Shown here: piece by piece, positions 673-29,441 of the stretch
Layout of the letters: every line of letters starts with the position of its first letter
How positions within the stretch are numbered: position 1 is the stretch's first letter
NCBI GenBank assembly: GCA_963843975.1
Contig: CAWJMG010000003.1
Coordinates: forward strand, 270,001 to 302,000
DNA length: 32,000 nt
Direction of reading: 5' to 3'
Source of the DNA: an uncultured Actinomycetes bacterium
GTDB taxonomy: Bacteria; Actinomycetota; Actinomycetes; S36-B12; CAIYMF01
The notes under the pieces: model-generated
Database searches by the model: none
The model's input: only the letters and a program-made list of their open reading frames with translations
What the model was told of the DNA's origin: nothing
Program-made: the position numbers and the translations under genes

Positions 673-1146
673 TCAGGCGACGTCCTCGTCGGAGCCGACG
701 GACTCGAGGTCGACCGGAAACGGAGTGGATCCTCCGAAGACCGCGGCCACCATGACGCCGATCTCGTCGGCGACCGTCGTGACGGAATCGAGTGCACGCT
801 CGATGGCGGGCTTGTCGACCGACATCCAGTGGATCGCGGCGTCGATCACGATGGCGCCGTCGTCCCAGGAGATCGAGGTCCAGCGGCTGCGGGGGTTGAG
901 CTCGGTCAGTTCGGTGAGCATCTTGCGCGACTTCGGCACCTCGTTCGCAGCCAGTGCAAACACGCGGACACCAGGCTGAGAGCCCCTGACCATTGAGACC
1001 CAGCACATCGACGTCTGGGAGCGGAAGGGGTAGTCGTCGTCGGCGTCGGTGGCCAGCTCGGTGTGGCCCCAGATCTCCTGCAGGGCGCGCTCCACGTGCG
1101 AGCGCAGCATCCGCGTCATCTGCTCGTTGCTCTGGGTCTCGGTCAT
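673..1146 (-). CDS. YbjN / T3SS-chaperone-like (TY-Chap type) small acidic protein
   Basis: 157-aa ORF with GC-rich third codon positions. A strong SD (GAGGAGAGGTGGAG) lies 5 nt upstream of ATG 1146. The layout DADDDYPF...VRVFALAANEVPKSRKMLTELTELNPRSRWTSISWDDGAIVIDAAI...ADEIGVMVAAVFGG matches the YbjN-like fold family. Assignment is by eye only. Confidence 0.65.
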   Translation of the reverse strand: MTETQSNEQMTRMLRSHVERALQEIWGHTELATDADDDYPFRSQTSMCWVSMVRGSQPGVRVFALAANEVPKSRKMLTELTELNPRSRWTSISWDDGAIVIDAAIHWMSVDKPAIERALDSVTTVADEIGVMVAAVFGGSTPFPVDLESVGSDEDVA

Positions 1147-1256
1147 CTCGACTCCACCTCTCCTCGTATGTCACCAGGGTAGGGAGGGGGTCTGACAGTC
1201 GAAATGGCATGGAGGAGTGCAGGAATCACCCGACTCGGAGGTTCCGAAATGTCTGC

Positions 1257-2620: not shown

Positions 2621-2693
2621 GCCCTACCTCCCGGTGGCGACGGAGGCACGACCGGGCCGATGGCCGTCGACTGTCAGACCCCAGCGGTACCTT

Positions 2694-2716
2694 CTGGCTA
2701 CTGGCTACTGGCTACT
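2694..2716. repeat. Tandem heptamer (CTGGCTA/TGGCTAC) x3.3 in the divergent intergenic region
   Basis: The sequence is ctggcta ctggcta ctggcta ct, read directly. It ends 1 nt before the GGGGGAAG SD of the 2727 gene. Confidence 0.9.
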
Positions 2717-2726
2717 AGGGGGAAGC

Positions 2727-6203: not shown

Positions 6204-6399
6204 GAGCGGCGGCCGGTTCAGTGCCACGTTCACTTGGGTCAGCTGGGGGTGATCCGACCCATCTCGCCTCGGCTCCCTCAGCAGCGGCCGGGAGTCGGGT
6301 TTGCGACAAGCCACGACGCGAGGTCGGCCGCATTGATCAGTCAGAGAGCGAAACGCATCGAACGGACCGCAGGATGTGTGCGGAGGAAGGGACTCGGGC

Positions 6400-12183: not shown

Positions 12184-12383
12184 GAGCTTCCCCGAACGGT
12201 TCCTTGGTCAGTGCAGCGCATTCTGCCGGTTGAGTCGCCTGGACGTGGCCTGCCGATGAATGTCTACCCAGTCGGGAAACGACTGGTGGACGACAGGTGA
12301 CTTGCGACAGTGGGTCGAGACGTGGGCGGTGGCGGTCTCGGGCGGCGCAATCGAATGTCGGTGGTCGGGCGGACCATCGAAGC

Positions 12384-12821
12384 GTGTTGGTGGAGCTTGT
12401 CGAATTGATGCGGGTGCTCGAGTCCGCGCTCGGATCCTTGAAGCCAGGGTGGTTCGCCGTCCTGGACTTCGTGGCCAAGCCCCAGGGTGATGCGCCGTAC
12501 GCGCAGGTGGCGCTCGAACCGTCCGGGTGGTACCTCGAGGTGGTCTCGGATTGGTACCTGCCTCGCCACGAGTGGCCGATCGATGAGTTGGCCCTGAGGA
12601 GAGCGGGGTGGTCGCCGCCGGTCGAAGTCTCGGACAACTGGCTCCGGTATGACTCAGCGCAGCTGTCGCTGGGCGACCTGGCAGCGTTGCTGGTGGATGC
12701 GCTCATCGTCGGACGCTGCTGCGACGCGGCGGGTGAGTTCCGCGTGACTACCGGTGCCTTCCCGTCCGGCCCGGACGGAGGCGAGCCGGTGCCGCTGCCG
12801 TGGGTCGCCGTGGCGGCGTAG
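12384..12821 (+). CDS. TY-Chap / YbjN-like chaperone-type domain protein (start uncertain: GTG 12384, GTG 12390 or ATG 12408)
   Basis: The ORF 12297..12821 has a junk-like N-terminus up to about 12380. After that, MRVLESALGSLKPGWFAVLDFVAKPQGDAPYAQVALEPSGWYLEVVSDWYLPRHEWPIDELALRRAGWSPPVEVSDNWLRY matches the 'yvQ..g.l.Evvsn.yL......L..lGW.pP...nw' pattern of TY-Chap domains. Assignment is by eye. Confidence 0.5.
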   Translation: MLVELVELMRVLESALGSLKPGWFAVLDFVAKPQGDAPYAQVALEPSGWYLEVVSDWYLPRHEWPIDELALRRAGWSPPVEVSDNWLRYDSAQLSLGDLAALLVDALIVGRCCDAAGEFRVTTGAFPSGPDGGEPVPLPWVAVAA

Positions 12822-12880
12822 CGGCGCCGCGATCGGCCGATCAGCGGATGCGGGCATCGCGAGCGAGAGAGGATGAGCGA

Positions 12881-13840
12881 ATGGACGCTCCATCGAAGTC
12901 TGACCTTGTGGACGCTGACTGCTGGTTTGCGGTCGATCGGGTGAAGGGTCGTCCTGACATCACGGCCTTCAAGCAGGAGGCAAGGCTTGCCCAAGCGCGG
13001 TGGCGTGAGACGAGGAACCTGCCGGCGGGAACGTCGCCGTATGACCCGTCCAAGGCCAAGGACTCGCGCCCCGCACGGGTCGTTGGGAGTCGGATCGCTC
13101 ATGCCGAGGGTTGGGCGGGCCAGCACAACCTGCTGAGTGAGACGGCCCGGGCCGCTGCGGCTCGACGACTCGCCGAGCCACAGCTTCACCAGATGCTCAA
13201 CTGGGATCGCGTGTGGTGCGACCTGCTGTCGTCGATGCCCCTGTGCTTCAACCTGTTCGGACCCCTGACTGTGGACCGCGAGCTTGCCCAGCGGGCCGTG
13301 AGCGCATGGTTTCCGGATGCACCGGGAACGGTGGAGGACGTGATCCTCGAGTGGTCACCTGAGCGCCGGACGGATCGCTACCTCAGGAACGGCACGGCCT
13401 TCGATGCGGCTGTGATTCTGAGACTGCCCGACGGCAAGCGCGGTGTCATCGGCATCGAGACCAAGTACCACGAGCACCTCGGGCATGAGGAGACCCCGGA
13501 GCCCGGGCGGCTCGCGCACTACCGGGCAATCGCGGAGGCGAGCAAGGCGTTCAAGCGCGACTCGGTCGACAAGCTGGTGGGCGAGCCCCTGCAGCAGATC
13601 TGGCAGGACCACCTGCTTGCGGAATCGATGCTGCTGCAGGAAGACGAAAACTGGGGCTGGTCGAGTTTCGTGCTCGCATATCCGTCTCGGAATCCGTCGT
13701 TCGCCGAAGGCGTGCAGCAGTACTCGGCCCTGCTGGCGAAGCCCGAGAGGGTCCAGCCGAGGACGCTCGAATCGCTTCTGCACTCACATGCTCTTCCCGA
13801 GGCCAACTCGAGTGCACTCGCCGACCGGTACCTCTGGTGA
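12881..13840 (+). CDS. PD-(D/E)XK nuclease-like protein
   Basis: ATG 12881 has a GAGAGAGGA SD upstream. The candidate catalytic core is TAFDAAVILRLPDGKRGVIGIETKYHEH (D ... E-x-K). A C-terminal helical region contains QQIWQDHLLAESML. Family-level call only. Confidence 0.55.
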   Translation: MDAPSKSDLVDADCWFAVDRVKGRPDITAFKQEARLAQARWRETRNLPAGTSPYDPSKAKDSRPARVVGSRIAHAEGWAGQHNLLSETARAAAARRLAEPQLHQMLNWDRVWCDLLSSMPLCFNLFGPLTVDRELAQRAVSAWFPDAPGTVEDVILEWSPERRTDRYLRNGTAFDAAVILRLPDGKRGVIGIETKYHEHLGHEETPEPGRLAHYRAIAEASKAFKRDSVDKLVGEPLQQIWQDHLLAESMLLQEDENWGWSSFVLAYPSRNPSFAEGVQQYSALLAKPERVQPRTLESLLHSHALPEANSSALADRYLW

Positions 13841-13886: not shown

Positions 13887-14120
13887 TCAATCGTCTTTGT
13901 CGATGACGATCCCGCGTCGAGCCCGCTCTGCCGCGATGTCGGCGTGCGTGGGGTTGGTCTGGGCTTGGAGCCAGGCCAGCATCGAGTCGGGCGGGGGAGG
14001 GCCGAAGCAGACAATGCCGCCGAGGATCTGGGCGCCGAACTGAGCGCCGATCCTCTGCGCCTCGGCCATGTTGGGCGGCGGCTCGCAGTCGCACCAGCCG
14101 TCTTCCGTGGCGTGTCCCAT
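13887..14120 (-). CDS. Small hypothetical protein (77 aa)
   Basis: A canonical AAAGGAG SD lies 5 nt upstream of ATG 14120. The composition is not Arg/Pro-junk: MGHATEDGWCDCEPPPNMAEAQRIGAQFGAQILGG.... No family was recognised. Confidence 0.5.
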   Translation of the reverse strand: MGHATEDGWCDCEPPPNMAEAQRIGAQFGAQILGGIVCFGPPPPDSMLAWLQAQTNPTHADIAAERARRGIVIDKDD

Positions 14121-14399
14121 GTCGGCTCCTTTGCGTCGTTGCTTCCGCCCGACGGTCGAGGGGCGGCGGATCTTCCTCCGGGGGCACCGTGCGACGAGCC
14201 GCGCGGTTGCCAGGCGACCAGCCGGAGGGCTTGTGGTCGCGCTTCTTGATCTGCCTTCACGCTATCGGCGAGCACCGACACAGGGGCTCGTGGTGGTTTC
14301 GGCAGGGCGTCGAGTACCGCGCCGATGTGACTTTCGGCCGCGTTACCCTGCTGGTCGGAGCAGTCGCGGGGGCTGCGCGGGGGATGGGGGACGACAACC

Positions 14400-15047: not shown

Positions 15048-15073
15048 GGATGCTGCCGACGCGGCCCGCGAGG

Positions 15074-16348: not shown

Positions 16349-16670
16349 TGCTGATCTCCACGGCGCTCGGGCGGACGCGCTGCGGCATCAGGGCGAGCCG
16401 GGTGCGCTCGCGCTCGGCGGCATCGCGCAGCTCACCGGCGTCGGCGCCGAACAGGGGTACGCCGCAGAGCACCGCCGCCTCGAGCACCGTGCCGATGGCC
16501 GTGCTCGGAGCACCCCGCTCGATCCTGCCGACGAGTTGCGGCTGCACGCCGAGACGTCCCGCCAGCTCGGCTGCCGTCCAGCCCAGTTCGCGGCGAGCGA
16601 CGGCGATCTGGACGCCCAGGGTCGCGACTGCGTCGAGTGTCGCGGGAAGGTAGGCACGGGTCTGCTTCAC
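16338..16670 (-). CDS. hipB: HipB-like XRE-family HTH antitoxin
   Basis: 110 aa. LGVQIAVARRELGWTAAELAGRLGVQPQLVGRIERG is a Cro/C1-type HTH. It overlaps hipA by 11 nt. It starts at GTG 16670 with no SD, so it may be leaderless. Confidence 0.85.
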   Translation of the reverse strand: MKQTRAYLPATLDAVATLGVQIAVARRELGWTAAELAGRLGVQPQLVGRIERGAPSTAIGTVLEAAVLCGVPLFGADAGELRDAAERERTRLALMPQRVRPSAVEISNDF

Positions 16671-16676
16671 ATCTGA

Positions 16677-16705
16677 AAGGTACGTTAAAACACTAATTAG
16701 AGCAA
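16677..16705 (-). promoter_or_regulatory. Candidate sigma70-type promoter for a leaderless hipBA transcript
   Basis: On the minus strand: TTGCTC (16705-16700), a 17-nt spacer, TACCTT (16682-16677), then 6 nt to GTG 16670. It lies inside a conspicuously AT-rich stretch (about 16672-16740) in an otherwise GC-rich window. Confidence 0.3.
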
Positions 16706-16844
16706 CAAAAAGCGATATAAAGATGTCTGTTCATCCAACGGTGGAGGCGTGTGCCGCCGAAGACGCAGGCGACGCCCCGTCTCATGGCCCACTGTCGCTG
16801 GCCGTCGATAGCGTGACCGTCGTATCTGCAGAGGGGGTGTGAGG

Positions 16845-18321
16845 ATGTCGGGCCTTCGGCATGACGAGCTGGTCGCCGCACGTCGTCACCACCCAGCGTG
16901 GCGGTTGCTGGCGGCGGACAACGCTCCGCTGGTGCTCGGCTTCTGCTCCCACGCCTACCTCGAGTCCAACGTGCGCACGCTCGCCCAGCCCGACGTCGTC
17001 GAGGCCCTCGACGACTACCTCGGCGCCCAGCGTGCGAGCAACCCCGATCTCTACCCGAAGTCGGCCGAGGCCTACCTCGCCGACTGGTCGCGCCCCGAGG
17101 CGGGCTGGCTGCGCCGGCACTATCCCCTCGGCGCCGACCTGCCCCACTACGAGCCCACTGCGGCGGTCGAGGTGGCCGCACGCTTCGCTCGCGATCTCGG
17201 CCCGCGCGAGTTCGTCGGTACGGCGTCCCGCCTGCTCACCATCCGCACGCTCCTGCGCGGGCTGACCTCGGGCGCAGCGGTCGATCCCGCCGAGCGGCTC
17301 GAGGCCCTCACCCGTCAGCGCGCCGAGGTCGACGCGGCGATCGCGGCCGTCGAGGCAGGCACCTATGAGCCCATGGATGACACGGCCGTGCGGGAGACCT
17401 ACGCGCAGGTGGTCACGACCGCGCGAGACCTGCTGGCCGACCTGCGCAGCGTCGAGGCGGCCATGCGCACGCTCGACCGCGATGTCCGAGCCTCGAGCCA
17501 CCGCGTGGGACGGCCCGCGCGGCGCGTTCCTCGAGACCGTGTTCGGCTCGGAGGAGAGCATCGGCGCGACCGACCAGGGGAAGTCCTGGCAGGCGTTCTG
17601 GGACCACCTCCTGTCGCCCACCGGCCAGTTGGAGCTCGATCGGCTGCTCGCCTCCACACGCGCGATCCCCGCACTCGCCGGACGTACGGCGGAGGGCGAC
17701 CAACTGCTGCGACGCGACCTCTACACCGCGGCCGAGGTGACCCAGGCGACCGTCGCCTCCCTGTCGGCGCAACTGCGCCGCTTCCTGGACGAGGCCGCGG
17801 CAGCGGAAGAGCGGCGGATCGGCGAGCTGGTGCGCGAGTCGCTGTCGGCGGCGCTCGACGCTGCGCGATCGGGCGTCGACGTACGCGCGCTCGGCACCGA
17901 GTTGCACGGGCTGCGGGCGGAGATCGTGCTGCCACTCGAGCGGCCGATGTACACCGTGCGGCTCGACGACGAGATCGCGGCCGTGCAGACCTCGACCGAC
18001 GACGCCTCTGATCTCGACCTCGCCGACCTCCTCGAGCACACGAGCATCGATCTCGGTGCGCTGCGTCAGGCGGTGGCCGACACGCGTGGCCGGTTCGGCT
18101 CCCCGGTGTCGCTCGGCCAGGTGGTGGCTGAGAACCCCCTCCGCCAGGGCCTCGCCGAGCTGGTCGGCTACCTGCAGGTCGCCGACGACTCGACTCACGA
18201 CGACGAGGGCACCGAGCTCGTCGAGTGGGTCGATGCCTCGGGCACCGCTCGGCGTGCTCGGCTTCCGCGGATCGTGTTCGACGAGCCCGGCCCTGACTCG
18301 ACGTACGGAGGACCGTGGTGA
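16845..18321 (+). pseudogene. jetA: JetA / MksF (DUF3375) of Wadjet, interrupted by a +1 frame change near 17493
   Basis: ATG 16845 has a GAGGGGG SD 7 nt upstream. The first frame (ORF 16839..18011) is protein-like through HHPAWRLLAADNAPLVLGFCSHAYLE...LRSVEAAMRTLDRDVRA. The next frame (ORF 17365..18321) is protein-like from RATAWDGPRGAFLETVFGSEESIGATDQGKSWQAFWDHLLS to the stop at 18321. The total of about 492 aa equals normal JetA length. Confidence 0.85.
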
Positions 18322-18905
18322 CTCTGTCCCGCGACGACGCCCTGTCGGTGGCCGTCGCCACCCTTCTGCAGGGGCCTGTCTACGCCGAGGAGAACCCGCT
18401 CGTGTGGTCGGTGCTACAGGCGCAGGTGGCCCGGATAAGCGACTACCTGAGCACCCTTGGGATGCACGTGATCGTGGACGACGTCGACGAGTACGCCTAC
18501 CTCCGCAGCAACGACGAGCTGCCCGAGGGCATGCCCCGCCTGCACCGTCGGCACAAGCTCGGGATGCGGGCCTCGATCCTGCTGGTGCTGCTGCGTCAGC
18601 GCATGACGGCCGCCGAGGCGGAGGAGGCCACGCCGCGCCTCATCGTCACGCGGGAGGAGATGGTCGAGTGGATGCGGCTGTACCACCCCGACGGCACGAG
18701 CGAGGAGAAGATCGCCACCGACATCGCCAAACTCGATGAGCTGGGCTACCTCAAGCGGTTGCGCGGCAACGACAACGCCTTCGAGGCGCGTCGCATCATC
18801 AAGGCGCAGGTGAGCGCCGACTACCTGACCCGCATGGCCGACGACCTGCTCGCTGCGGGCGCTGGCACCGACGACGCACAGGGAGACGCCGATGGCGATC
18901 TCTGA
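18315..18905 (+). CDS. jetB: JetB / MksE (DUF4194)
   Basis: 196 aa. The GTG start overlaps the jetA stop (GTGGTGA). LLQGPVYAEENPLVWSVLQAQVARISDYLSTLGMHVIVDDVDEYAYL...ILLVLLRQRM... is the typical DUF4194 pattern. Its position between jetA and jetC fits. Confidence 0.9.
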   Translation: MVTLSRDDALSVAVATLLQGPVYAEENPLVWSVLQAQVARISDYLSTLGMHVIVDDVDEYAYLRSNDELPEGMPRLHRRHKLGMRASILLVLLRQRMTAAEAEEATPRLIVTREEMVEWMRLYHPDGTSEEKIATDIAKLDELGYLKRLRGNDNAFEARRIIKAQVSADYLTRMADDLLAAGAGTDDAQGDADGDL

Positions 18906-21900
18906 CCCTGCCACTCCCGACCTGTTCCACGACGAGCCGGCTCACGGTTCCCGGCGGCCGGGCCTTCGCCTTCACCGGGTCGAGGTGCTCAACTGGGGCA
19001 CGTTCGACCACAAGGTGGCGGTGCTCGAGGTCAGCGGCGGCAACTGCCTGCTCACCGGGCAGGTGGGCGCGGGCAAGTCGACCATCGTGGACGCTGTGTC
19101 GCTGGTGATGAACCCGCCCAGCCAGATCACCTTCAACCAGGCCGCCGGTGCGAGCCGCCGCGAGCGCACGCTCACCAGCTATGTCCTCGGCGCCTACCGC
19201 AACGTCTCGGACGAGCAGACCGGCTCTTCGAGGCCCGACTACCTGCGGCGCGCGGCGGGAGCGCAGTCGGTGGTGCTGACGGTGTTCGGCGACGACTCCG
19301 GACGCCGGATCACCACGGGCGTCATGCTCCGCTTCCAGAACGAGGCGTCCACCCCGAAGGCCCAGTACGTCGTTGCCGACCGCGATCTGTCGATCGAGAG
19401 CGATTTCACCGGGCATCCCGACGCGCGCGGACTGCGCGCGGCGCTGCGGGCGGGCGGTGTGGAGATCTTCGACAACTACGCGCAGTACTCCAAGATGCTT
19501 GACCGGCGGCTGCGCCTGTCGCGCGTCGCGCTCGGGCTGTTCAACCAGACGGTGTCGATGAAGTCGGTCGCCGATCTCAACGAGTTCGTCCGCCACCACA
19601 TGCTCGAGCCGGTCGACGTCGTGCCAGCGATCGAGAAGATGCTCAGCCACTACGCCGACCTCACCCGTGCGCACGACCTCGTCGTCGACGCGCGGCAGCA
19701 ACGCGAATCTCTCGACAGGGTCGATGCGCAGTCGAAGGCGCTCGACTCCGCCGAGGCGCGCATCGCGGCGACGGAGGCCGCGGTCGCGGCAGTCTCATCC
19801 GAGGTCGACGCCCATCGACGCACCCTGCTCACGGCGGCGATTGCCGTGGCCGAGGCCGAGCTGCCGCAGCTCGCGAGCCGCAAGCGCAGCCTCGACGTAC
19901 AGGTCGACTCGCTCCGGCGCCAGCAGACCGACCTGGAGGTGAGCCTGCGCGCGCACGGCGGCAGCGACCTTGCTCTCGCCGAACGGGAGGTCGACGCGGC
20001 GCGCAGCAGGCACGAGGCCGTGGCTGACGCCCGGCGGCGTCTGGAGGCACTGGTCGAGACCGCCCACATGTCTGCGCCTGCCGGGGTCGACGACTTCGCT
20101 GACTTCCTGGCGGCGCTGGCCGCGATCGAGTTGGAGGTGGCCACGCTTGGAGCGCAGGCGAGCCACCGGCTCGCGGCGGCCGTGGGCGCTCGGTCCGTCG
20201 CGGGCGACGCCCTCGCTGCCAACGAGCGCGACACCGCGGCCGCCAGCGCTCGTGCCTCCAACGTCCCCGCGCGGCTCGCCGAGCTCCGCGACCAGATCTC
20301 GACCGAGCTCGAGTTCCCTGACGACACCCTCGTGTTCGCGGGCGAGCTGCTCGACGTCGCCCCCGACCATGCTGCGTGGCGCGGCGCGATCGAGCGGCTG
20401 ACGCGCGGCTTCGCGACGTCGTTGCTCGTGCCCGCTGAAGCCCACGCGGCGGTCACCCGATGGGTCGAGCAGCACCACCTCGGTCAGCGGCTGGTCACCT
20501 ACCGGGTCGACGAGTCTGCCGGCGCCACGACCTCACCCGCTGAGCCCGGCACCGTGGCTGCTCGGCTGGTGGTGAAGCCGGGGGCGCACGCGGCGTCTTG
20601 GGTGCGGGCCGAGGTGGCGCGGCGCTTCGACCACGTGTGCGTCGAGGACCTGGCCGACCTCCCGGGACACCGGCGAGCGCTCACCCGCGCCGGCCAGGTC
20701 AAGGACTCGCACCGGCAGGAGAAGGACGACCGCCGCCGCATCGACGACACACTCAATTGGGTGCTCGGCTGGGACACCCGCGCCCGGCTCGCCGCCCTGC
20801 GTGCGGCGCACGCCACTCTGACGGGCGAGCGCGACGCCGCCGAGCAGGAGATGCTGCGGGCACAGGACGAGGCGGGCGCACTGACTGTGCGCGACCGTGC
20901 CGTGTCGACCCTCCGCACGCAGTTCACCGACCCGGCGCAGGTCGACCTCGACGCGGCGACGGCGGCGGCCCGTGCGGCCGAGGAGCACCTCGAACGGCTC
21001 CGGGCCGACCCCGGGATCGCCGCGCTCACCGCGCAGCTCGACGACGTCGTACGCCGCGTCACCGCGCTGACGGCCGACCAGAACTCGGTCGTGGGGCGTA
21101 TCGCCACGACCGGGCAGGATCTCGACCGGCACCGCCGGGAGCGGGACACGCTGCCTCCCTCCGACGTCGTGCTCGACGAGGATGCCCGCGCGGTGCTCGA
21201 GCGAGCGCGCGTGCGCGTGGGGGCTGCGCCGGGCGAGCTCACCGACGTCGAGTCGTGGGGCCGGTCCCTGCGCGAGCATGTGGACGGCGAGGCGTCTGCG
21301 GCGCGCGCCAAGCAATCGAGCGTCGAGCAGGCCCTCGTGTCGGTCATGGGTGCCTATGCCTCACGCTGGCCGGCGCGGGTCGTCGACGTCGACGTCGCAC
21401 GGGTGGCTGGCAGGGTGGAGCTTCTGGCGCTGCGCGGCCGGCTCGTGGCCGACGACCTGCCGCGCTTCGAGCGGGACTTCCGGGACAAGCTGCAGTCCAA
21501 CGCCATCAACGAGATCGCGATGTTCGCCCGCAAGCTCGACACCGAGGCGGCAGCGATCGGTGAGCGGATCACCACCATCAACACCGCGCTCGCGGGCATC
21601 GACTACCAGCCAGGGACGAGGATCGAGCTCGCGATCGAGCCGACCAAGGACCAACAGGTGCGCGACTTCCGAGCCGAGCTGCGCGCCATCACCACGGGCA
21701 TGGTCGGTGGGGGCGACGGCGCCTACAACGAAGAGAAGTTCCTCGCGGTCCGCGAGCTGCTCGACCGGTTCCGCGGGCGCGAGGGTCACGCCGACGACGA
21801 CACCCGCTGGGTCCGGCGAGTGACCGACGTACGCAACTGGCACACGTTCGCTGCCAACGAGCGCTCACGTGAGGAGGACACCGTCGTCGAGCACTACTCC

Positions 21901-22278
21901 GACACAGACGGGAAGTCCGGCGGCCAGAAGGAGAAGTTGGCCTACACGATCCTGGCCGCGTCGCTGGCGTACCAGTACGGACTTGCCGACGGCGACGCGC
22001 GCAGGTTCCGCTTCGTCATGATCGACGAAGCGTTCGGTCGTGGTTCGGAGGAGTCGACGCGCTACGGTCTCGACCTGTTCGACCGGCTCGGGCTGCAGCT
22101 GCTCGTCGTCACTCCACTGCAGAAGATCAGCACCATCGAGCCGCACGTGCAGTCGGTGGGCTACATCGGGCGGACGGGGAACACGTCACGGCTGCGGTCG
22201 ATGACGATCGAGGAGTATCGCGAGCTGCGCAGCGGCCGTGTCGCCGAGGGTCTGCGGACCGCGCTGGCGATGCCGTGA
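18892..22278 (+). CDS. jetC: JetC / MksB SMC-like ATPase
   Basis: 1128 aa. Motifs: LNWGTFD...LLTGQVGAGKSTIVDA (Walker A), a long Ala/Arg/Glu coiled-coil middle, SGGQKEKLAYTILAASLAYQYG (signature) and FRFVMIDEAFGRGSEE (Walker B). It overlaps jetB by 14 nt. Confidence 0.93.
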   Translation: MAISDPATPDLFHDEPAHGSRRPGLRLHRVEVLNWGTFDHKVAVLEVSGGNCLLTGQVGAGKSTIVDAVSLVMNPPSQITFNQAAGASRRERTLTSYVLGAYRNVSDEQTGSSRPDYLRRAAGAQSVVLTVFGDDSGRRITTGVMLRFQNEASTPKAQYVVADRDLSIESDFTGHPDARGLRAALRAGGVEIFDNYAQYSKMLDRRLRLSRVALGLFNQTVSMKSVADLNEFVRHHMLEPVDVVPAIEKMLSHYADLTRAHDLVVDARQQRESLDRVDAQSKALDSAEARIAATEAAVAAVSSEVDAHRRTLLTAAIAVAEAELPQLASRKRSLDVQVDSLRRQQTDLEVSLRAHGGSDLALAEREVDAARSRHEAVADARRRLEALVETAHMSAPAGVDDFADFLAALAAIELEVATLGAQASHRLAAAVGARSVAGDALAANERDTAAASARASNVPARLAELRDQISTELEFPDDTLVFAGELLDVAPDHAAWRGAIERLTRGFATSLLVPAEAHAAVTRWVEQHHLGQRLVTYRVDESAGATTSPAEPGTVAARLVVKPGAHAASWVRAEVARRFDHVCVEDLADLPGHRRALTRAGQVKDSHRQEKDDRRRIDDTLNWVLGWDTRARLAALRAAHATLTGERDAAEQEMLRAQDEAGALTVRDRAVSTLRTQFTDPAQVDLDAATAAARAAEEHLERLRADPGIAALTAQLDDVVRRVTALTADQNSVVGRIATTGQDLDRHRRERDTLPPSDVVLDEDARAVLERARVRVGAAPGELTDVESWGRSLREHVDGEASAARAKQSSVEQALVSVMGAYASRWPARVVDVDVARVAGRVELLALRGRLVADDLPRFERDFRDKLQSNAINEIAMFARKLDTEAAAIGERITTINTALAGIDYQPGTRIELAIEPTKDQQVRDFRAELRAITTGMVGGGDGAYNEEKFLAVRELLDRFRGREGHADDDTRWVRRVTDVRNWHTFAANERSREEDTVVEHYSDTDGKSGGQKEKLAYTILAASLAYQYGLADGDARRFRFVMIDEAFGRGSEESTRYGLDLFDRLGLQLLVVTPLQKISTIEPHVQSVGYIGRTGNTSRLRSMTIEEYRELRSGRVAEGLRTALAMP

Positions 22279-23447
22279 CCGGCGAGTGGTCGGCGCCGGC
22301 CGTCGTGCGCGACGCCGCGGCGCGATGGTGGCGAGGGGGCAGGCTGCTGCGCGAGCTGCACGTCCCGGGTGACCCGCCGCTGTTCCCTGCACGCGTACGT
22401 CTCGTACGGCCCTCGGGCGAGGAGATCGCCGACCGGTACGCCGACGTCCGCGCCTGGGCCGACCGGCATGCAAGGGCGGCCGCCGCCGGTGGTTGGGCCG
22501 TCGAGACGCGTCGGGTTCCGGTTCGGGCCCTCGGTGCGCAGGAGGTTCCGTCAGCACTCGTCGTCCCCGACGTGCGCACGGCGCTCGCACTGCTGGGGCC
22601 AGCAGCCGTCGCCGATGCGGAGGTGTTCGCCGGGTGCCTTGATCAAGCGCGCGACGTCCGCGACTGGGCGGTGCGTGCGGCGATGGCGCGTCCCCTCGAC
22701 GTCGTGGCAGCGGCGCCGGACTGGTCCGCGCTCCTCGACGTCGCACGCTGGATGGTGGCGAATCCGCGGCCCGGTGTGCATATCCGGGCGATCCCTGTGC
22801 CCGGTGTGCACACCAAGCTGGTCGAGTCACGACGCGCTCTCCTCGGGCTGCTCCTGTCCGAGGCGCTCGACCCCGAGCACATCGATGACGACGCGGACAC
22901 GTTCGAGGGCCGCTTCGGGTTCGCGACCGGGGAACGGTCGGTCGTGCTCCGCGCTCCCGGCACGATGCTGGGCCTGCCGCACCTTGACGTCGCCGAGGTG
23001 ACGTGGCCGCTGGCTGGTCTCGGTCGACGGCCTCACGGGGTCGCAGAGGTCGTGGTCGTCGAGAACCGGGTCTGCCTCGCGATGGTGCCGTGGCGTGCCG
23101 ACCGGTGCGCAGTGTGGGGTGCCGGCTACGGCGCTGGCGACCTGCTACGTGGTGCGCCGTGGCTCGCGGACGTCGACGTCGTCTACTGGGGTGACCTCGA
23201 CACGCACGGCCTCGCAATCCTGTCGGAGGTGCGTGGTGCGGTGCCCCAGGCGCGGTCCATCCTCATGGACGTCGCGACCCTCGACGAGCACCGAGACCGC
23301 GTGGGGGTTGAGCCGTCATCGCGTACGGACGAGTTGCCCAACCTCAGGCCGAGGGAGGAGGAACTGTGGGAGCGGTTGCGGCGTACGGGTGAGCGGCTCG
23401 AACAGGAGCACATCGCGGCCGAACAGGTGGCGGCCGCGCTCGCGTGA
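22275..23447 (+). CDS. jetD: JetD / MksG Toprim-type nuclease subunit
   Basis: 390 aa, with a GTGA overlap onto the jetC stop. The N-terminus WWRGGRLLRELH...FPARVRLVRPSGEEIADRYADVRAW is DUF3322-like. The C-terminal Toprim block is VVVVENRVCL...VYWGDLDTHGLAIL. Confidence 0.9.
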   Translation: MTGEWSAPAVVRDAAARWWRGGRLLRELHVPGDPPLFPARVRLVRPSGEEIADRYADVRAWADRHARAAAAGGWAVETRRVPVRALGAQEVPSALVVPDVRTALALLGPAAVADAEVFAGCLDQARDVRDWAVRAAMARPLDVVAAAPDWSALLDVARWMVANPRPGVHIRAIPVPGVHTKLVESRRALLGLLLSEALDPEHIDDDADTFEGRFGFATGERSVVLRAPGTMLGLPHLDVAEVTWPLAGLGRRPHGVAEVVVVENRVCLAMVPWRADRCAVWGAGYGAGDLLRGAPWLADVDVVYWGDLDTHGLAILSEVRGAVPQARSILMDVATLDEHRDRVGVEPSSRTDELPNLRPREEELWERLRRTGERLEQEHIAAEQVAAALA

Positions 23448-23629
23448 GGGTTGTGACGCGCGGTAGGCCACAGCTCGCACTGTTCGCTGCTCCCACTCGC
23501 GGCTTGTCGGTGGGAATGGAGTTGCAGCCCTTCGTAGATGCTCGCCCTGCGCGCGGGCCCGACGCGTCACGACTGATGAGGGATCTCGTCGGTGGCCTGT
23601 GCCAGCATCGGGCTCGGAGGGGATGCGAC

Positions 23630-24604
23630 ATGGACGACCTTGCTGACCGCGCGGCGGGTGCGCTGCTGGGCATGGCCTCGGGCGACGCGCTCGGTGCGGG
23701 CTACGAGTTTGGCCCGGCGCTGCCGGCGTCGACCGATGTTTGGATGAAGGGTGGCGGCGGCTTCGGCTGGGCGCCGGGGGAATGGACCGACGACACGCAG
23801 ATGGCGATCCCGCTGCTCGAGGCGGCCGAGCTCGCGTGCTCGTCAGGGACGGCGCTCACTGACCAGTTGGACCACGTGGCGCAGCGCTGGGTGGACTGGT
23901 CGGTGAACGCGGCCGACGTCGGCAACCAGACCCGGTCGGTGCTGGCGACGGTTCGGCACTCCGGCACCGTCGACGCTGCGGCGCTGACAGTCGCCTCGCG
24001 GGCGCTGCACTCGTTGACCAGGCGCACCGCGGGCAATGGCTCGCTGATGCGGACGGCCCCCGTCGCGCTTGCCTACCTGTCCGACCCGGGCGGCCTGGCC
24101 GAGGCCGCTCGGACTGTCAGCGCACTCACGCACTGGGACGACGACGCAGGCGACGCGTGCGTGCTGTGGTGCCTGGCCATCCAGCACGCGGTGGTCGACG
24201 GGTCGCTCGATGTCGAGGCCGGTTTCGACCTCGTGCCCGCTGAACGGCGTACGACGTGGGCTGACCGGATCTCTGCGGCTGCGTCCGGGCATCCGGAGGA
24301 CTTTCCGCAGAACGGCTGGGTCGTGCACGCGTTCCAGGCGGCCTGGTCGTCGATCGTGCGGGCGCAGGCACTGACCGACTCGGCGGCACAGCTCAGGCTC
24401 GGGCTCGAGAAGGCAGTGCGCTCCGGCGGCGACACCGACACGGTCGCGGCCATCGCCGGGCAGCTGCTGGGTGCGCGGTGGGGTGCCTCGGCCGTGCCGT
24501 CGGAGTGGGTCGACGTACTGCACGGGTGGCCGGGGATCAGTGGGCGCGATCTGGCCGCACGCGGAGCAGGACTGGTGGGGGAGTTGGCGTGGCACCTCGA
24601 CTGA
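23630..24604 (+). CDS. ADP-ribosylglycohydrolase (ARH/DraG family)
   Basis: ATG 23630 has a GGAGGGG SD upstream; the track start at 23444 is an upstream in-frame extension. All family blocks are present: LLGMASGDALGAGYEF, GEWTDDTQMAI, AGNGSLMRTAPVAL, GGDTDTVAAIAGQLLGARWG and VPSEW. Confidence 0.85.
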   Translation: MDDLADRAAGALLGMASGDALGAGYEFGPALPASTDVWMKGGGGFGWAPGEWTDDTQMAIPLLEAAELACSSGTALTDQLDHVAQRWVDWSVNAADVGNQTRSVLATVRHSGTVDAAALTVASRALHSLTRRTAGNGSLMRTAPVALAYLSDPGGLAEAARTVSALTHWDDDAGDACVLWCLAIQHAVVDGSLDVEAGFDLVPAERRTTWADRISAAASGHPEDFPQNGWVVHAFQAAWSSIVRAQALTDSAAQLRLGLEKAVRSGGDTDTVAAIAGQLLGARWGASAVPSEWVDVLHGWPGISGRDLAARGAGLVGELAWHLD

Positions 24605-26211
24605 TCCCGCCGGCGCCCGAGTTCCGCTCGCGGGCCGAGCGGAGGCTGTGGGCAGCGCTCAAGTCGCAGCTGCCGCCCGAGGCATTCCTCGCGGCCAACG
24701 TCCACCTCGGCGCACACGAGGACTTCTACGAGGCCGATCTCGTGATCGGCCTGCCCGATTGCGGATTCGTCGTGGTGGAGGTGAAGGGCGGGCAGGTCGG
24801 TCACACCGACGAGGGCTGGATCCAGTACACCCGCGAGGGTCCGAAGCACATCGATCCGGCCGTGCAGGCTGATCGCGCCAAGCGTCTGCTCGACACCTAC
24901 GTCCGCGGCCGCGGGTGGCCGCACGGCCCGATTCGCTTCGAGCACATGGTGGCCTTCCCCGACGTCGAGTTCGGCGACGAGCCACCGGCGCCGGATCTGC
25001 CTAGGTGGCAGCTGATCGCGGCCGGCGACGTCGATGACGCAGCCGGTCGCATCTGGGACGCGCTGGCGCACAGGATCACGGACAAGCCGATCCCGGGAGC
25101 CGCATGGGTGGCCGAGCTCGCCGACCTCATCGGTGGGCGACCCGACTCTGCGCGCGCCCTGCTCGGCGCCGAGCAGGACCGTTCGGAGCACGTCCTGCGC
25201 CTGACCGAGGAGCAGTACCGCGTGCTCGACCACATGGTGTCGAACGACCGGATCTCCGTCGTGGGCGGCCCGGGCACGGGCAAGACGTGGCTGGCGCTCG
25301 AGCAGGCGCGTCGCTGGGCCAAGCAGAAGGAGCGAGTGCTTCTGGTCTGCTACTCGCAGGGGCTGTCGCGTTGGCTCCGCCAGGCGATCGACACGAGCGG
25401 TGTTGCCGTGGCAGGGCGCGTGGATGTCATGACGTTCTCGTCGTACCTCGTGAACCTGGGCGTCGAGGTGCCCGCGGTCGCCGACCAGCACTGGTGGGAC
25501 GTCACGCTGCCGGCCCTCGCTGCGCCGCTGGTGACACCGGCGTACGACGCGGTGGTGGTGGACGAGTCGCAGGACTTCGCCGACGTCTGGTGGCCCCTGC
25601 TGCTCGCCTCGCTGCGTGGCCAGCACCTGTTCATCGCCGGGGATGAGCGGCAGTCGGTGTTCCCCGACCGACGGGGTCGGCCCACTGTGCAACTGGCCAC
25701 CGTGACACTCACCGAGAACCTGCGGAACACCTCTCAGATCGTGTCGCTGCTCAACCCGCTCGTGCCCGACAAGATGCGGCACAGGGGTGGCGTCGGGCCT
25801 CCGGTGCGCTTCGTGCAGTGTGCGACGTCGGACGTTTACGACCGCGCGGACGCCGAGGTCGAGTCACTGTTGTTCGCCGGCCACGTACCCAGCTCGGTGG
25901 CCTTGCTGACCACGCGTCATCGTCACCCGAATCAGCTGCGGATTGAGGAGCTCTTCGGCGGCAAACCGGGCTACTGGGACGGGTTCGGGCTCGGGGACGA
26001 CGTGTTCTACGCGACCGTGATGGGATTCAAGGGATTGGAAAGACCCGTCGTGGTGCTGGCCGTCGATGGTTTCCATGACGGTGTCGCTCGGGACGTGCTC
26101 TACACCGGGTTGTCGCGGGCTCGCGATCAGCTCGTGGTCGTCGGTGATCTCGAGGAGATCCGGGTGGCCGCCGGCAATGAGGTCTGCAAGCGCCTGACCG
26201 CTCCATCTTGA
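24589..26211 (+). CDS. NERD nuclease domain fused to a UvrD/PcrA-like SF1 helicase (Nhi-like architecture)
   Basis: GTG 24589 has a GGTGGGGGAG SD 5 nt upstream. Both lie inside the 3' end of the ARH gene, giving a 16-nt overlap. NERD block: FRSRAERRLWAALK...FYEADLVIGLPDCGFVVVEVKGG. Helicase motifs: VVGGPGTGKTW (Walker A), AVVVDESQDF (Walker B), LFIAGDERQSVF, NLRNTSQI, GFKGLERPVVVLAV and LYTGLSRARDQLVVVG. Confidence 0.85.
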   Translation: MAPRLIPPAPEFRSRAERRLWAALKSQLPPEAFLAANVHLGAHEDFYEADLVIGLPDCGFVVVEVKGGQVGHTDEGWIQYTREGPKHIDPAVQADRAKRLLDTYVRGRGWPHGPIRFEHMVAFPDVEFGDEPPAPDLPRWQLIAAGDVDDAAGRIWDALAHRITDKPIPGAAWVAELADLIGGRPDSARALLGAEQDRSEHVLRLTEEQYRVLDHMVSNDRISVVGGPGTGKTWLALEQARRWAKQKERVLLVCYSQGLSRWLRQAIDTSGVAVAGRVDVMTFSSYLVNLGVEVPAVADQHWWDVTLPALAAPLVTPAYDAVVVDESQDFADVWWPLLLASLRGQHLFIAGDERQSVFPDRRGRPTVQLATVTLTENLRNTSQIVSLLNPLVPDKMRHRGGVGPPVRFVQCATSDVYDRADAEVESLLFAGHVPSSVALLTTRHRHPNQLRIEELFGGKPGYWDGFGLGDDVFYATVMGFKGLERPVVVLAVDGFHDGVARDVLYTGLSRARDQLVVVGDLEEIRVAAGNEVCKRLTAPS

Positions 26212-26292
26212 GCGATCGTCCTGCGCTCCTGAATCGCGATCTTTGGGGGAGAATCGGGCCCGAGTGGGCGAGGTGCCTGGCAAGCTGCCTCC

Positions 26293-27228
26293 ATGGGGGT
26301 AACCGAGCAGCTGGCCTACGACCGCGACGTGCGACTGGCGGCGATGGACTTCGTTTCCTCCGTCGCCGATGCGCACAACGGAACGGTCACCCGAGAGCAA
26401 CTCCAGCAGTTCACGTTTCGTGGCGAGAGCATCAAGCTCCTCGACACTGGCCGAGGGATCCGCAATCCCCGCCAGCTCGTGGCCACCCTGACCATCCTCA
26501 CGTCAGCGAAGTCGCCGTACGACGACACTCCTGGACCCGAGGGTCTGCTTCGGTACGCGATCAGAGACGGTGAACTCGGGGAGGGCGACAACCGAAAACT
26601 GCGGCGGGCCTACGAGCTGCAGGTGCCACTGATCTGGTTTCGCGGGGTGCGGGACGGCGTGTTCGTGCCCTACATGCCGGTTTATCTGGCCGAGGAGGAC
26701 GTGGAAACGAAGCGCTATGTGGTGGCACTAGGCGAGGAGCAGCTCCTGATGGCGCCCAAGCTCCTGGACCTGACGCCGGTCGAGGCCAACCTGAGCGCGG
26801 TCATCGCCCAGCGGGCGTACGTCGAGCGGATGACCAAGCAACGCCTTCACCAGCCGGCCTTCCGCGCCGGCGTGATGCTCGCCTACGGAACTCGGTGCGC
26901 GGTGTGCTCGCTCGCGCACGGTGAGCTGCTGGATGCCGCTCACATCGTCGAAGACGGACGGCCAGGCGGCGATCCTGTCGTTCCGAACGGATTGGCGCTC
27001 TGCAAGATCCACCATGCTGCCTACGACCGCAACATCCTCGGCATCAGCCCCGAGCGAGTCGTGCACATCAACGCCGAAATCCTGGCGGAGGTGGATGGGC
27101 CGATGCTTAAGCACGGGATCCAGGAGTTCCACCAGTCGCAGCTTCGAGTGCTGCCCCACCGCAAGTCCGAGCGGCCGGACGAGCAGCGACTGGCGGACCG
27201 GTTCGAGCGATTCCTGGCCGCGAGCTAA
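26293..27228 (+). CDS. HNH_2-family endonuclease with an N-terminal putative DNA-modification reader domain (type IV restriction-like, ScoMcrA-type layout)
   Basis: 311 aa. The C-terminal CAVCSLAHGELLDAAHIVEDGRPGGDPVVPNGLALCKIHHAAYDRNILGISPE is a canonical HNH_2 motif. The N-terminal roughly 190 aa (GRGIRNPRQLVATLTILTSAKSPYDDTPGPEGLLRYAIRDG...DNRKLRRAYELQVPLIWFRGVRDGVFVPYMPVYL) resembles the reader modules fused to such HNH domains. The exact reader type is unresolved. Confidence 0.8.
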   Translation: MGVTEQLAYDRDVRLAAMDFVSSVADAHNGTVTREQLQQFTFRGESIKLLDTGRGIRNPRQLVATLTILTSAKSPYDDTPGPEGLLRYAIRDGELGEGDNRKLRRAYELQVPLIWFRGVRDGVFVPYMPVYLAEEDVETKRYVVALGEEQLLMAPKLLDLTPVEANLSAVIAQRAYVERMTKQRLHQPAFRAGVMLAYGTRCAVCSLAHGELLDAAHIVEDGRPGGDPVVPNGLALCKIHHAAYDRNILGISPERVVHINAEILAEVDGPMLKHGIQEFHQSQLRVLPHRKSERPDEQRLADRFERFLAAS

Positions 27229-27934
27229 CGCGCGGCTTCTGACTTCGCTGCGGCTAGCCTCCGCGAGCGCGGCCTCGGCCGCGGTTCGCGTGTCATCGGG
27301 GACGGCGTACAACGCGTCGCGGCCCCGGGCGAGGGCGCACAGTTCGTCTGCCAGGGCTCGGAGCTGCTTCGTGAGTGGCTCGCCGGGTCGCGAAGCCTCC
27401 ACGGCCTGAGCGACCTCGTCGTAGTACCACGCGATCTGCGGCGGCTTGGCGTTGAACCGCTTCCAGAGCTTGTCCTCGACTTCGGCGTGGTCGTTGACCA
27501 TCGCGCGCGCGTTAGAGATCTTGTCGGCACAGGTCACCAGCATCTCGGGCGGGTCTGCTGACCAGAGGCGGACAAGGTATGGGATCTTGCGCTCGAGCCA
27601 GCTTCGCTTAGACCGCTCGCCGCCGGGCTCGCCATCGGTGCAGTGCTGCACGATCTTCGCGACCTCGGGGCCGAAGCGGCGGGCGATCTCGTCCGCGCTC
27701 GTCCATCGGTGCTGGTCCTCCAGTGCGTCGTGCAGGAGGCCGGCGATGGCTTCGGTCTCCGTCCCGCCACCGATCCACACGAGCGACGACACCTCGAGCA
27801 GGTGGGCGACGTACGGGATCGTGGGCGGTGCGTCGGGCCCCGCCTTGCGCCACTGGGGGGGCATGCAGGCGTGCCGCGTACGACAGCGCCTCCTCGTACC
27901 TCGGACCGGATGTGGCTGTTGATGCAGACGTCAC
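27225..27934 (-). pseudogene. HD-domain (SpoT/HD_4-like) phosphohydrolase. The frame breaks at a G7/C7 homopolymer, and there is no stop in the main frame before it runs antisense into the HNH gene
   Basis: As-sequenced ORFs are 26728..27864 and 27608..28237. GTG 27934 (AAGGGAG SD upstream) gives VTSASTATSGPRYEEALSYAARLHA in one frame. After the homopolymer at 27855-27861, the next frame gives PQWRKAGPDAPPTIPYVAHLLEVSSLV...AIAGLLHDALEDQ...VTCADKISNARAM, which holds the HD motifs. The end at 27225 is inferred, because a third frame ends AAAKSEAAR-stop there. The literal ORF continues to 26728. Confidence 0.65.
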
Positions 27935-28421: not shown

Positions 28422-29441
28422 CTAGGTCCACGTGATGGACCGGCGGGCGGCCTCGTACACCGCTTCAACCTGATCGGCCGACATCAGCACGGTCGAACGC
28501 TTGAAGGCCCTAGGCACATCCATGCGATCGAGAATCGCGACGTCATCCGGCTTGCTCTTGATCGTGACGTCAGGGATCAGGGTGCCTGTCGTGAAGATCA
28601 GCACCGGCTTGACGAACACGGGGAAGCCGGCCGCGGCCGACAGGAGCTTGGTGGCTCGCTCGCCCTCGAAGCGCGAGTTGCGCAGGTAGTCCGTCCGGTG
28701 GCCGTTGACGAGGATCGTCGTCTTGCTGACCCAGACCTTCTTTCCCGGATGCTTCTTGGTGTTGACCGTGAAGACGCCGGCCGGGCCGATAACCACGTGG
28801 TCGATGTCGCTGCCCCGCTTGCCGACGGGGACGGAGTGCAGCACGTACCAGCCGTCCTTGGTGAGCTTCTCGAGTTTCGCACCGATCGTCTCTTCGCCGT
28901 CGGCACCCACTCGCCAGGCCCGCTCGTCGGTCTTGACGTCGAGCGTGCGCGCGAGCCATGTGCCGACCCGCGACTTCTCCTTCATCGCGGCGAGCTCCTC
29001 CTCGGCCTTCGCGCGCGCGGCCTGGCCGGGGCGGTTGAGGGCGAGGTCGTGCCACTCGTCGTCCGCGACCTGAGGAACTGCCACGTCCAAAGAGACGGGA
29101 TCCACCGCGGGCTCCACAGGAGGAGGCAACGGCAGCGATGGACCAGACGGAGGGAGGTGTGGACTCTCGTTGCCCCTGATTGCGGGCGAAGGCGGGGTGT
29201 CGGGCTCATGAGCCGTATGCGCATCCTCCGGCGCTGAGCAGCGCACAGTCGTCGGCAAGGTACCCGCCCGCGTCTGGTAGACCTCGACGACCTCAGCCAC
29301 TGCCGAAGCCAGCTCGGGCACCGTCACGTGAATCTGCCCGGTGAGCAGATCCGCCCATCCGACCTCGAACCCGTCGGCGTCCTTCACGTAGAGCCGGTCC
29401 TTGCCAAAGCGGGTCCACCGGACCCCCGTCAGTTCCCCCAT
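28422..29441 (-). CDS. NERD domain-containing protein
   Basis: 339 aa. The N-terminus is RWTRFGKDRLYVKDADGFEVGWADLLTG, followed by a Pro-rich linker. The NERD core is WRVGADGEETIGAKLEKLTKDGWYVLHSVPVGKRGSDIDHVVIGPAGVFTVNTKKHPG. Confidence 0.85.
   Translation of the reverse strand: MGELTGVRWTRFGKDRLYVKDADGFEVGWADLLTGQIHVTVPELASAVAEVVEVYQTRAGTLPTTVRCSAPEDAHTAHEPDTPPSPAIRGNESPHLPPSGPSLPLPPPVEPAVDPVSLDVAVPQVADDEWHDLALNRPGQAARAKAEEELAAMKEKSRVGTWLARTLDVKTDERAWRVGADGEETIGAKLEKLTKDGWYVLHSVPVGKRGSDIDHVVIGPAGVFTVNTKKHPGKKVWVSKTTILVNGHRTDYLRNSRFEGERATKLLSAAAGFPVFVKPVLIFTTGTLIPDVTIKSKPDDVAILDRMDVPRAFKRSTVLMSADQVEAVYEAARRSITWT

Follow-up and report, generated by a model that had tools for sequence, protein, structure and literature searches.

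Phage ADP-ribosyltransferases (ARTs), among them Alt, ModA and ModB of T4 and many others, have been known for decades, and we know of no demonstrated host system that specifically counters them. Counter-ADP-ribosylation systems centred on an ADP-ribosylglycohydrolase (ARG, here ARH) have been predicted computationally, and their authors regard these ARG-centric systems as the first candidates for such a role (Iyer, Burroughs, Anantharaman and Aravind 2022, Viruses 14:1977, section 3.8; PMC9503650). In that account ART-less ARG-phosphatase cores are joined by peptide-binding chaperones (vWA, SseB and the named components TY-Chap1 to TY-Chap3), by ARPP and NrtR, and by restriction endonucleases (REases) "further linked to helicases". 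Effectors are treated as optional add-ons, and a Nudix-helix-turn-helix (NrtR) or WYL repressor is present in >42% of the systems and is not universal; NERD has 0 occurrences in the text of the paper. A second related system, DarHTG (Liu-DS3; Nucleic Acids Res 2026, PMC13069673), is validated as anti-phage and consists of a UvrD-like helicase without the 2B domain, DarT and the ARH-fold antitoxin DarG3. Here we analyse two overlapping genes, encoding an ARH and a NERD nuclease fused to a superfamily 1 (SF1) helicase, in a stretch of 32,000 nt from an uncultured Actinomycetes bacterium (the window; GC content 68.5%), where an earlier note had proposed an undescribed defence module. With its 2.6 kb this cassette is the smallest ARG-centric form that we have encountered.

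The layout and inheritance of the two genes indicate that they form a real, co-inherited and translationally coupled unit. The ARH frame runs from ATG 23630 to TGA 24602-24604 and the helicase frame from GTG 24589 to TGA 26211, with the Shine-Dalgarno sequence GGTGGGGGAG 5 nt 5' of the GTG. The overlap of 16 nt, this start codon and its ribosome-binding sequence had been described in the earlier note and proved exact to the base. We take GTG 24589 as the true start of the helicase because homologs of 534-555 aa align with it from residue 1 and have the N-terminus MxPRLIP in common. The arrangement was followed in a sample of helicase homologs that comprised 80 species-level loci, 4 metagenome loci (the yield of a scan with the single helicase protein as query) and 12 annotated contexts; loci that have to be told apart are cited by L numbers. 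All relatives found were actinobacterial. An ARH stop codon overlapping or abutting the helicase start on the same strand occurred in six lineages, whose helicases are 66-100% identical to that of the window. The 16-nt overlap of the window (helicase 100%) recurs in L082-85 (88%), L001 and L094 have an ATGA overlap (76%), L087 has a GTGA overlap (68%) and in L088 a gap of 2 nt separates the genes (66%). The identities of ARH and helicase to the window fall in step (84/88, 74/76, 74/76, 62/66 and 59/68%). When L082, L094, L001 and L087 were aligned with the window by blastn, the matching block began at 23587 every time, whatever lay upstream; the upstream flank is Wadjet in the window, Fic in L082, hipBA in L094 and L001, a second ARH plus NrtR in L087 and a DUF697 GTPase in L088. 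L087 has the order NrtR, first ARH, a 234-aa protein, second ARH and then the helicase. Alignment of the upstream regions further showed that the GGAGGGG leader motif is common to the window, L082, L094 and L001.

Looser forms of the pairing were also found. The ARH lies 472 nt upstream of the helicase in L099 and is divergent-adjacent to it in L028 and L031; in L098 and L100 the divergent neighbour is an ARH-DSPc fusion, and in Geodermatophilaceae and Paraoerskovia the ARH lies 1-5 kb away. By profile search, 16 of the 80 species loci have an ARH no more than 6 kb from the helicase, and ARH is the commonest real neighbour cluster of the helicase homologs, the many antisense shadow ORFs called in high-GC DNA having been recognised and disregarded. 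The positions of the cassette and of the genes discussed below are collected in Table 1.

Table 1. The ARH-helicase cassette and the related or neighbouring features of the window (positions count from the first letter of the window).
Feature	Position	Strand	Basis or remark
Conserved 43-nt leader with Shine-Dalgarno GGAGGGG	23587..23629	+	Left edge of the cassette; blastn blocks
ADP-ribosylglycohydrolase (ARH, = ARG), 324 aa	23630..24604	+	Pfam PF03747; catalytic residues intact
Overlap of ARH stop and helicase start, 16 nt; translational coupling	24589..24604	+	Read from the sequence
NERD (PD-(D/E)xK) nuclease and minimal SF1 helicase, 540 aa; presumed effector	24589..26211	+	Pfam, PADLOC, AlphaFold, Foldseek
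SRA-like domain and HNH nuclease, predicted type IV modification-dependent restriction enzyme	26293..27228	+	Pfam HNH_2, AlphaFold, Foldseek
HD_4 (RelA/SpoT-type HD phosphohydrolase), convergent with the operon	27208..27934	-	Pfam HD_4 E 1.3e-13
TY-Chap3 chaperone	12297..12821	+	Pfam PF22552 E 6.4e-13; 11 kb upstream, putative link to the cassette
PDDEXK_13/REase-ARP nuclease overlapping TY-Chap3	12800..13840	+	PF20796 E 1.2e-77, PF22558 REase-ARP E 3e-27
TY-Chap1 chaperone	673..1170	-	PF22551 E 3.9e-25; 22 kb from the cassette
GIY-YIG_2 nuclease beside TY-Chap1	1257-1940		PF20815 E 9.8e-15

The ARH has the sequence of an active hydrolase. Its motifs GDALG (residues 18-22), WTDDTQM (52-58), GNGSLMR (135-141) and GGDTDTVAAIAG (265-276) are all in place, the Pfam model ADP_ribosyl_GH covers the protein over its full length (E 2.5e-52) and the catalytic positions are invariant in an alignment of 28 homologs, which bears out the claim that every catalytic block is intact. 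The closest curated or solved relatives, with all metal-binding motifs, are Tri1, which gives immunity to the type VI secretion system (T6SS) toxin Tre1, and DraG, which reverses DraT (PDB 6dre, 2woc, 3g9d). The protein nevertheless scores far below the NCBIfam equivalog cut-offs of both families (92.6 bits vs 337 for DraG, 103.4 bits vs 490 for Tri1), and the locus has no Tre1, T6SS, DraT or nif context. Membership in the DraG/DraT and Tri1/Tre1 systems was rejected on these scores and on the lack of a cognate transferase, and the protein is not an orthologue of DraG or Tri1. The nearest ARH relatives beyond the helicase-linked ones are fusions of 480-530 aa in which an ARH is joined to DSPc (rhodanese-phosphatase superfamily) or to HD_4; homologs at 57-66% identity are mostly of these types (ARH with PF00782 or with PF13328).

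The partner protein was assigned by Pfam a NERD domain (residues 15-124) followed by AAA_19, AAA_30 and UvrD_C_2. Across 56 helicase sequences there is no variation at E48, D50, E64 and K66 of the nuclease, in the Walker A motif GxGKT (G229, G231, K232) or at D325, E326 and Q328. The AlphaFold model (mean predicted local distance difference test score, pLDDT, 92.2) joins the NERD domain through a helical linker to a pair of RecA domains that lack 1B and 2B inserts, a predicted motor that corresponds to a minimal SF1 core. In Foldseek searches with this model SLFN11/14, IGHMBP2, Dna2, Upf1 and RecD2 ranked above UvrD and PcrA. The description of the protein as a NERD nuclease fused to a complete UvrD-like helicase was therefore right as to the NERD and SF1 parts and loose as to the UvrD part. 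The best fold matches of the nuclease-linker-SF1 model are the Schlafen group III proteins (human SLFN11, SLFN14) and Dna2 (E 7e-17 to 1e-11), but with identities of 14-17%, TM-scores of 0.4-0.46 and a SLFN core in place of NERD the likeness is an architectural analogy only. Closer in build are Nhi and other single-protein nuclease-helicases and the NERD-helicase associated with the UG34 reverse transcriptase (RT), which is cluster 485 of Mestre et al. 2022 and the PADLOC profile RTasNERD-Hel; like the protein of the window they have an N-terminal NERD/PD-(D/E)xK domain and a C-terminal SF1 part within about 500-550 aa. RTasNERD-Hel covers residues 47-392 (E 3.8e-31) and the NERD+UvrD profile C3a187 also matches (E 1.9e-19), whereas the Nhi profile covers the Walker A region only (residues 205-254, about 50 residues, E 5.1e-7); the partner here, moreover, is an ARH. 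We accordingly rejected membership in Nhi, since there was no full-length profile match, and in the UG34 defence-associated reverse transcriptase (DRT) group, since no RT was present in any ORF of the window. Pfam and PADLOC runs on the ARH, the helicase and the HNH protein downstream, which had been suggested as a check, confirmed the domains; no PADLOC model matched the ARH, and the helicase drew only generic NERD-helicase matches and GajB and Nhi fragments.

The slot upstream of the helicase is variable and holds an ARH, SNF2 (L096), RNase_T-TerB-BRCT (four species) or SACS/NOV_C, and in Mestre et al. 2022 the partner is the UG34 RT. Since the upstream partners differ in this way, the NERD-SF1 helicase behaves as a modular, reusable effector. 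Searches of plasmid and phage collections returned distant matches only (27-39% identity), and there was no sign of the cassette on known plasmids or phages. A full-length homolog, 39% identical, is encoded in an unannotated 'Bacteriophage sp.' record from human faeces (GenBank MT835574.1, 6762-8408), and a metagenome-assembled genome of Bifidobacterium breve (L036) also encodes a homolog. A second, stand-alone NERD-domain protein of 339 aa is encoded in the window at 28422-29441 (-); L001, L094 and L095 conserve it, and in L082 and L083 it is fragmented.

No enzyme that could write the ADP-ribose mark accompanies the cassette. Pfam detected no ART, DarT, Fic, SIR2 or RT domain in the substantial window ORFs that were scanned, as the earlier note had reported for ADP-ribosyltransferases, and there was no ART, DarT or sirtuin in the 12 annotated related contexts. 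In L082 (5773-6987; also in L083-85), the 88%-identical relative and no other, a gene for a 404-aa Fic-domain protein precedes the ARH by 52 nt in the same orientation; being confined to one lineage, it was rejected as a general explanation for the missing writer.

Since the relatives of the ARH are DSPc and HD_4 fusions, since NrtR, ARPP-1 and TY-Chap genes occur in related loci and since HD_4, TY-Chap and REase-ARP genes occur in the window, we place the ARH in the predicted ARG clade. The cassette resembles ARG-centric systems in having an ART-less ARG of the same clade as the ARG-phosphatase fusions, a variable REase-fold effector linked to a helicase (here NERD and SF1 overlapping the ARG) and an alarmone-type HD phosphatase nearby. 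The island also holds REase-ARP, TY-Chap3 and TY-Chap1, the two chaperones at distances of 11 and 22 kb and with a putative link to the cassette. Further points of likeness are the actinobacterial hosts and the variable, island-like setting, and NrtR is present in L087 and in the Geodermatophilaceae loci, where the ARH homolog has ARPP-1 (PF20208) and a divergent Nudix-NrtR regulator as neighbours, HD_4 is close by, and these genes lie 1-5 kb from the helicase. The cassette differs in that the NERD REase and the SF1 motor are one polypeptide, translationally coupled to the ARG. The term 'undescribed' was thus too strong and the cassette is not categorically new, because its class had already been predicted; the coupled two-gene form of an ARG and a NERD-SF1 helicase, whose operon includes neither a regulator nor a phosphatase or chaperone, constitutes a distinct, minimal variant of that class.

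We propose, with a probability of roughly one half, that the ARH and the NERD-SF1 helicase are one co-expressed two-gene anti-phage cassette, a stripped-down variant of the ARG-centric systems. The ARH, as an active hydrolase related to DraG and Tri1, would strip host proteins of ADP-ribose that a foreign phage ART has attached; its own partner, the nuclease-helicase, may be one of these proteins, and the two may form a physical complex. The nuclease-helicase would be the DNA-directed effector that translocates on and cuts the DNA of the invader, and the HD_4 phosphohydrolase nearby might further process the released ADP-ribose. A more specific version, which we consider doubtful, makes the ARH a sensor arm: hydrolysis of a phage-ART mark on a host protein or on the nuclease-helicase would license the NERD-helicase to destroy invading DNA. 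If this sensor version were true, the system would detect phage ADP-ribosyltransferase activity directly, beyond the repair of damage, and viral ADP-ribosylation would for the first time have a host counter-measure amenable to experiment. Because the cassette is only 2.6 kb long, has clear catalytic residues and has natural relatives with and without the ARH, it makes the ARG-centric prediction directly testable.

Several observations weigh against the proposed anti-phage cassette. The window has no NrtR or WYL regulator, its operon contains neither a phosphatase nor a chaperone (TY-Chap3 and TY-Chap1 are present but distant), and the literature searched held no experimental evidence for any ARG-centric system. 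The ARH is missing in about half of the close clade and in most of the wider helicase family (relatives at 38-48% identity); L086, which is 72% identical and lies inside the ARH-positive clade, has none, nor have L002, L090-92, L095-97 and L005. As the family is mostly without it, the ARH is dispensable for the effector. The pairing thus appears recurrent and not obligatory, which makes the 'obligatory' co-expression of the earlier note too strong, and its expectation of an ARH kept upstream with overlapping stop and start held in the six lineages described above while many relatives are without an ARH. One entire helicase clade stands in housekeeping-looking synteny (SDR, alpha/beta-hydrolase and MFS genes), and the linkage in Geodermatophilaceae may in part be inherited synteny. 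The census of pairing was helicase-centred, all loci having been collected around helicase homologs, and reads the association in one direction only. Finally, the other partners of the helicase (SRA-HNH, GIY-YIG, RNase_T-TerB-BRCT, SNF2 and HHH proteins) all act on DNA, so a DNA substrate for the ARH fits equally well as a protein substrate.

This last point leads to the best surviving alternative, that the cassette handles ADP-ribosylated DNA. The ARH would clear modified bases (marks of the DarT type or of the pierisin/ScARP type) and the helicase-nuclease would find, unwind or resect modified or stalled DNA, either as an orphan antidote to DNA-ADP-ribosylating toxins or in the restriction of ADP-ribosylated invader DNA. 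DarHTG provides a precedent for cooperation between an ARH-fold enzyme and an SF1 helicase on DarT-modified DNA (PMC13069673). In both loci one operon encodes an ARH-fold hydrolase together with an SF1 helicase without accessory domains, DarG3 being compared here by its description; the motor of the window is likewise a minimal SF1 core, and all recurrent helicase neighbours are DNA-acting, GIY-YIG_2 and HHH_3 domains among them. DarHTG, however, has the DarT toxin with DarG3 as its antitoxin, whereas the window has no ART and a helicase with an N-terminal NERD domain, and membership in DarHTG was rejected because neither the window nor the related loci yielded a DarT. That the window and the 12 annotated contexts contain neither DarT nor another ART counts against the handling of DNA marks, as do the activities of DraG and Tri1, the closest solved or curated relatives, which hydrolyse arginine-linked ADP-ribose on proteins. 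Protein substrates are also suggested by the peptide-binding chaperones that accompany the ARG clade. We consider a DNA substrate unlikely; it ranks first among the competing explanations.

It is also conceivable, and in our view quite improbable, that there is no defence module at all: the ARH would serve NrtR-controlled housekeeping of ADP-ribose and nicotinamide adenine dinucleotide (NAD), the helicase would be an unrelated repair or defence gene and the overlap would reflect gene packing. In favour of this, NrtR, a Nudix-HTH regulator of NAD metabolism, adjoins ARH and ARPP-1 both in Geodermatophilaceae and in L087; a single family supplies much of the wider linkage, which is possibly inherited synteny, and one helicase clade lies among metabolic genes. 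Gene packing does not sit well with an overlap that has been kept in six lineages despite complete turnover of the flanks and with a fixed block edge, nor with three further arrangement types that keep the adjacency; the surrounding genes encode toxin-antitoxin pairs, Wadjet, type IV restriction enzymes and large nuclease-helicases. The least probable reading is a gate or toxin-antitoxin pair in which an ADP-ribose mark or ARH binding holds the nuclease-helicase off or on and the ARH is the switch or antitoxin, since the typical toxin-antitoxin layout of a small upstream gene overlapping a larger nuclease gene, the co-divergence of ARH and helicase and an upstream slot (ARH, SNF2, RNase_T-TerB-BRCT, SACS/NOV_C) that looks like a set of swappable regulators are offset by the many family members, close ones included, that exist without an ARH, so that the nuclease needs no antidote, by the lack in the window scans of a writer enzyme to install an inhibitory mark, and by the full catalytic set of the ARH, unlike that of a binding-only pseudoenzyme. 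The related proposal that the ARH removes an inhibitory ADP-ribose from the helicase found no support, there being no writer enzyme in any lineage examined.

The cassette of ARH and NERD-helicase follows jetD after 182 nt and precedes the HNH gene by 81 nt, the distances given originally. The placement directly after Wadjet has no meaning for its function. The genes jetABCD, of which jetB, jetC and jetD were confirmed by Pfam, occupy 6.87 kb (16720-23586) between hipB (helix-turn-helix, 16338-16670, -) and the ARH leader; in L082 a Fic gene takes this place. The distance from the hipBA block (window 15060-16719) to the ARH block is 230 nt in L094 and L001 vs 6.87 kb in the window. Moreover, JetC and JetD had no tblastn match in the 80 species loci, and Wadjet was absent from L082, L094, L001, L087 and L088. 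We concluded from the short hipBA-ARH gap and the unmatched JetC and JetD that Wadjet was inserted secondarily, and a role of the pair as a Wadjet accessory was rejected on the same searches and on the five paired lineages that lack Wadjet. In the window one extra C at 17491 divides jetA (16839-18321) into two ORFs. The gene is intact (491 aa) in L081, an independent assembly of the same strain with zero substitutions against the window over 12.3 kb, and the split is probably an assembly error, not a pseudogene. The L081 assembly in turn has a deletion of 2 nt at 9244 (window 23831-23832) that breaks its ARH gene. Both indels between the two assemblies sit in GAGCTC/CTCGAG contexts, which hints at systematic long-read errors at a methylated motif.

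The gene downstream of the helicase had been called type-IV-like HNH, and its predicted fold agrees with this. Pfam assigned HNH_2, the PADLOC HNH profile matched with E 3.4e-15, the NCBIfam model PT-DNA_restrict matched in part, and the AlphaFold model (pLDDT 90) retrieved TagI (2e-7), ScoMcrA (2e-5), VcaM4I and the SRA domain of SUVH5 in Foldseek. On the model, then, the product is a type IV SRA-HNH enzyme with a fold like TagI, ScoMcrA and VcaM4I. It lies in a nucleotide block of its own (26278-27230) with lower GC content. L082 has no nucleotide-level match at this position, though its flanks align at 83-85%, and carries a different HNH_2 gene instead; in L094 (6673-7550), and equivalently in L001, an MNT/HepT (nucleotidyltransferase/HEPN) toxin-antitoxin pair stands between the helicase and the HNH gene. 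For these reasons the HNH protein was down-weighted as a third subunit, and its gene is probably an independent defence gene that shares the locus. HNH_2 genes turn up near the helicase again in L020, L030, L073, L087, L096 and L099, and cassette contexts in general are rich in defence and toxin-antitoxin genes.

The HD_4 gene, 2.6 kb downstream in the window and likewise in L082, is a candidate accessory phosphatase of the ARG system. It is 82% identical to the 251-aa HD_4 protein of L082, and HD_4 homologs occur within 6 kb of the helicase in 7 of the 80 species loci and also in L093 and L099. The window copy is frameshifted at a G7 run (about 27855-27861), with its first 26 codons in another frame. 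Its C-terminal tail differs from that of L082, and the ORF continues antisense through the HNH gene to 26728. Of the chaperone types, a TY-Chap3+TY-Chap1 fusion abuts the helicase in the Aeromicrobium/Nocardioides clade (six species), and DUF6884+GIY-YIG_2 genes likewise stand directly beside the helicase in clades other than that of the window. The PDDEXK_13/REase-ARP gene of the window is, on its domains, a second effector of the ARG-system type in the same island. PADLOC has no model for TY-Chap, REase-ARP or HD_4.

TY-Chap3 and PDDEXK_13/REase-ARP may belong to a three-gene operon (11521-13840, +) that begins with a 259-aa ORF and has overlapping starts, an assembly of ARG-centric parts without an ARG of its own. 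The ARH-DSPc genes of L098 and L100 are followed by two GFO_IDH_MocA oxidoreductase genes (plus SDR in L098), which may be a sugar-processing extension of the ARG module. A scan of 23.3-28.5 kb for promoters and terminators found none and is uninformative for a high-GC actinobacterium; the tRNA scan found no tRNA genes in the window and therefore no tRNA integration site. A SAM-IV riboswitch (Rfam RF00634, 57.9 bits) was detected at 14134-14251 (-), upstream of a 77-codon ORF (13887-14120, -) without a Pfam match. L088 and L099 also have this element (85-88% identity), a few kb away from the ARH genes of these loci. Two giant SF1 helicase-nucleases are encoded further upstream, one at 2454-6203 (+) with RNase_H_2 and AAA_11/12 domains and MkoA-like PADLOC matches, the other at 7707-11690 (-) with SF1 and MTES_1575 REase domains, a PDC-S37 match (1.4e-61) and Hhe-like matches. 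Between them lies the gene of an EcsC protein (6376-7512) with a weak PDC-S29 match, and in L087 and L099 the RNase_H_2 helicase is again found near the cassette.

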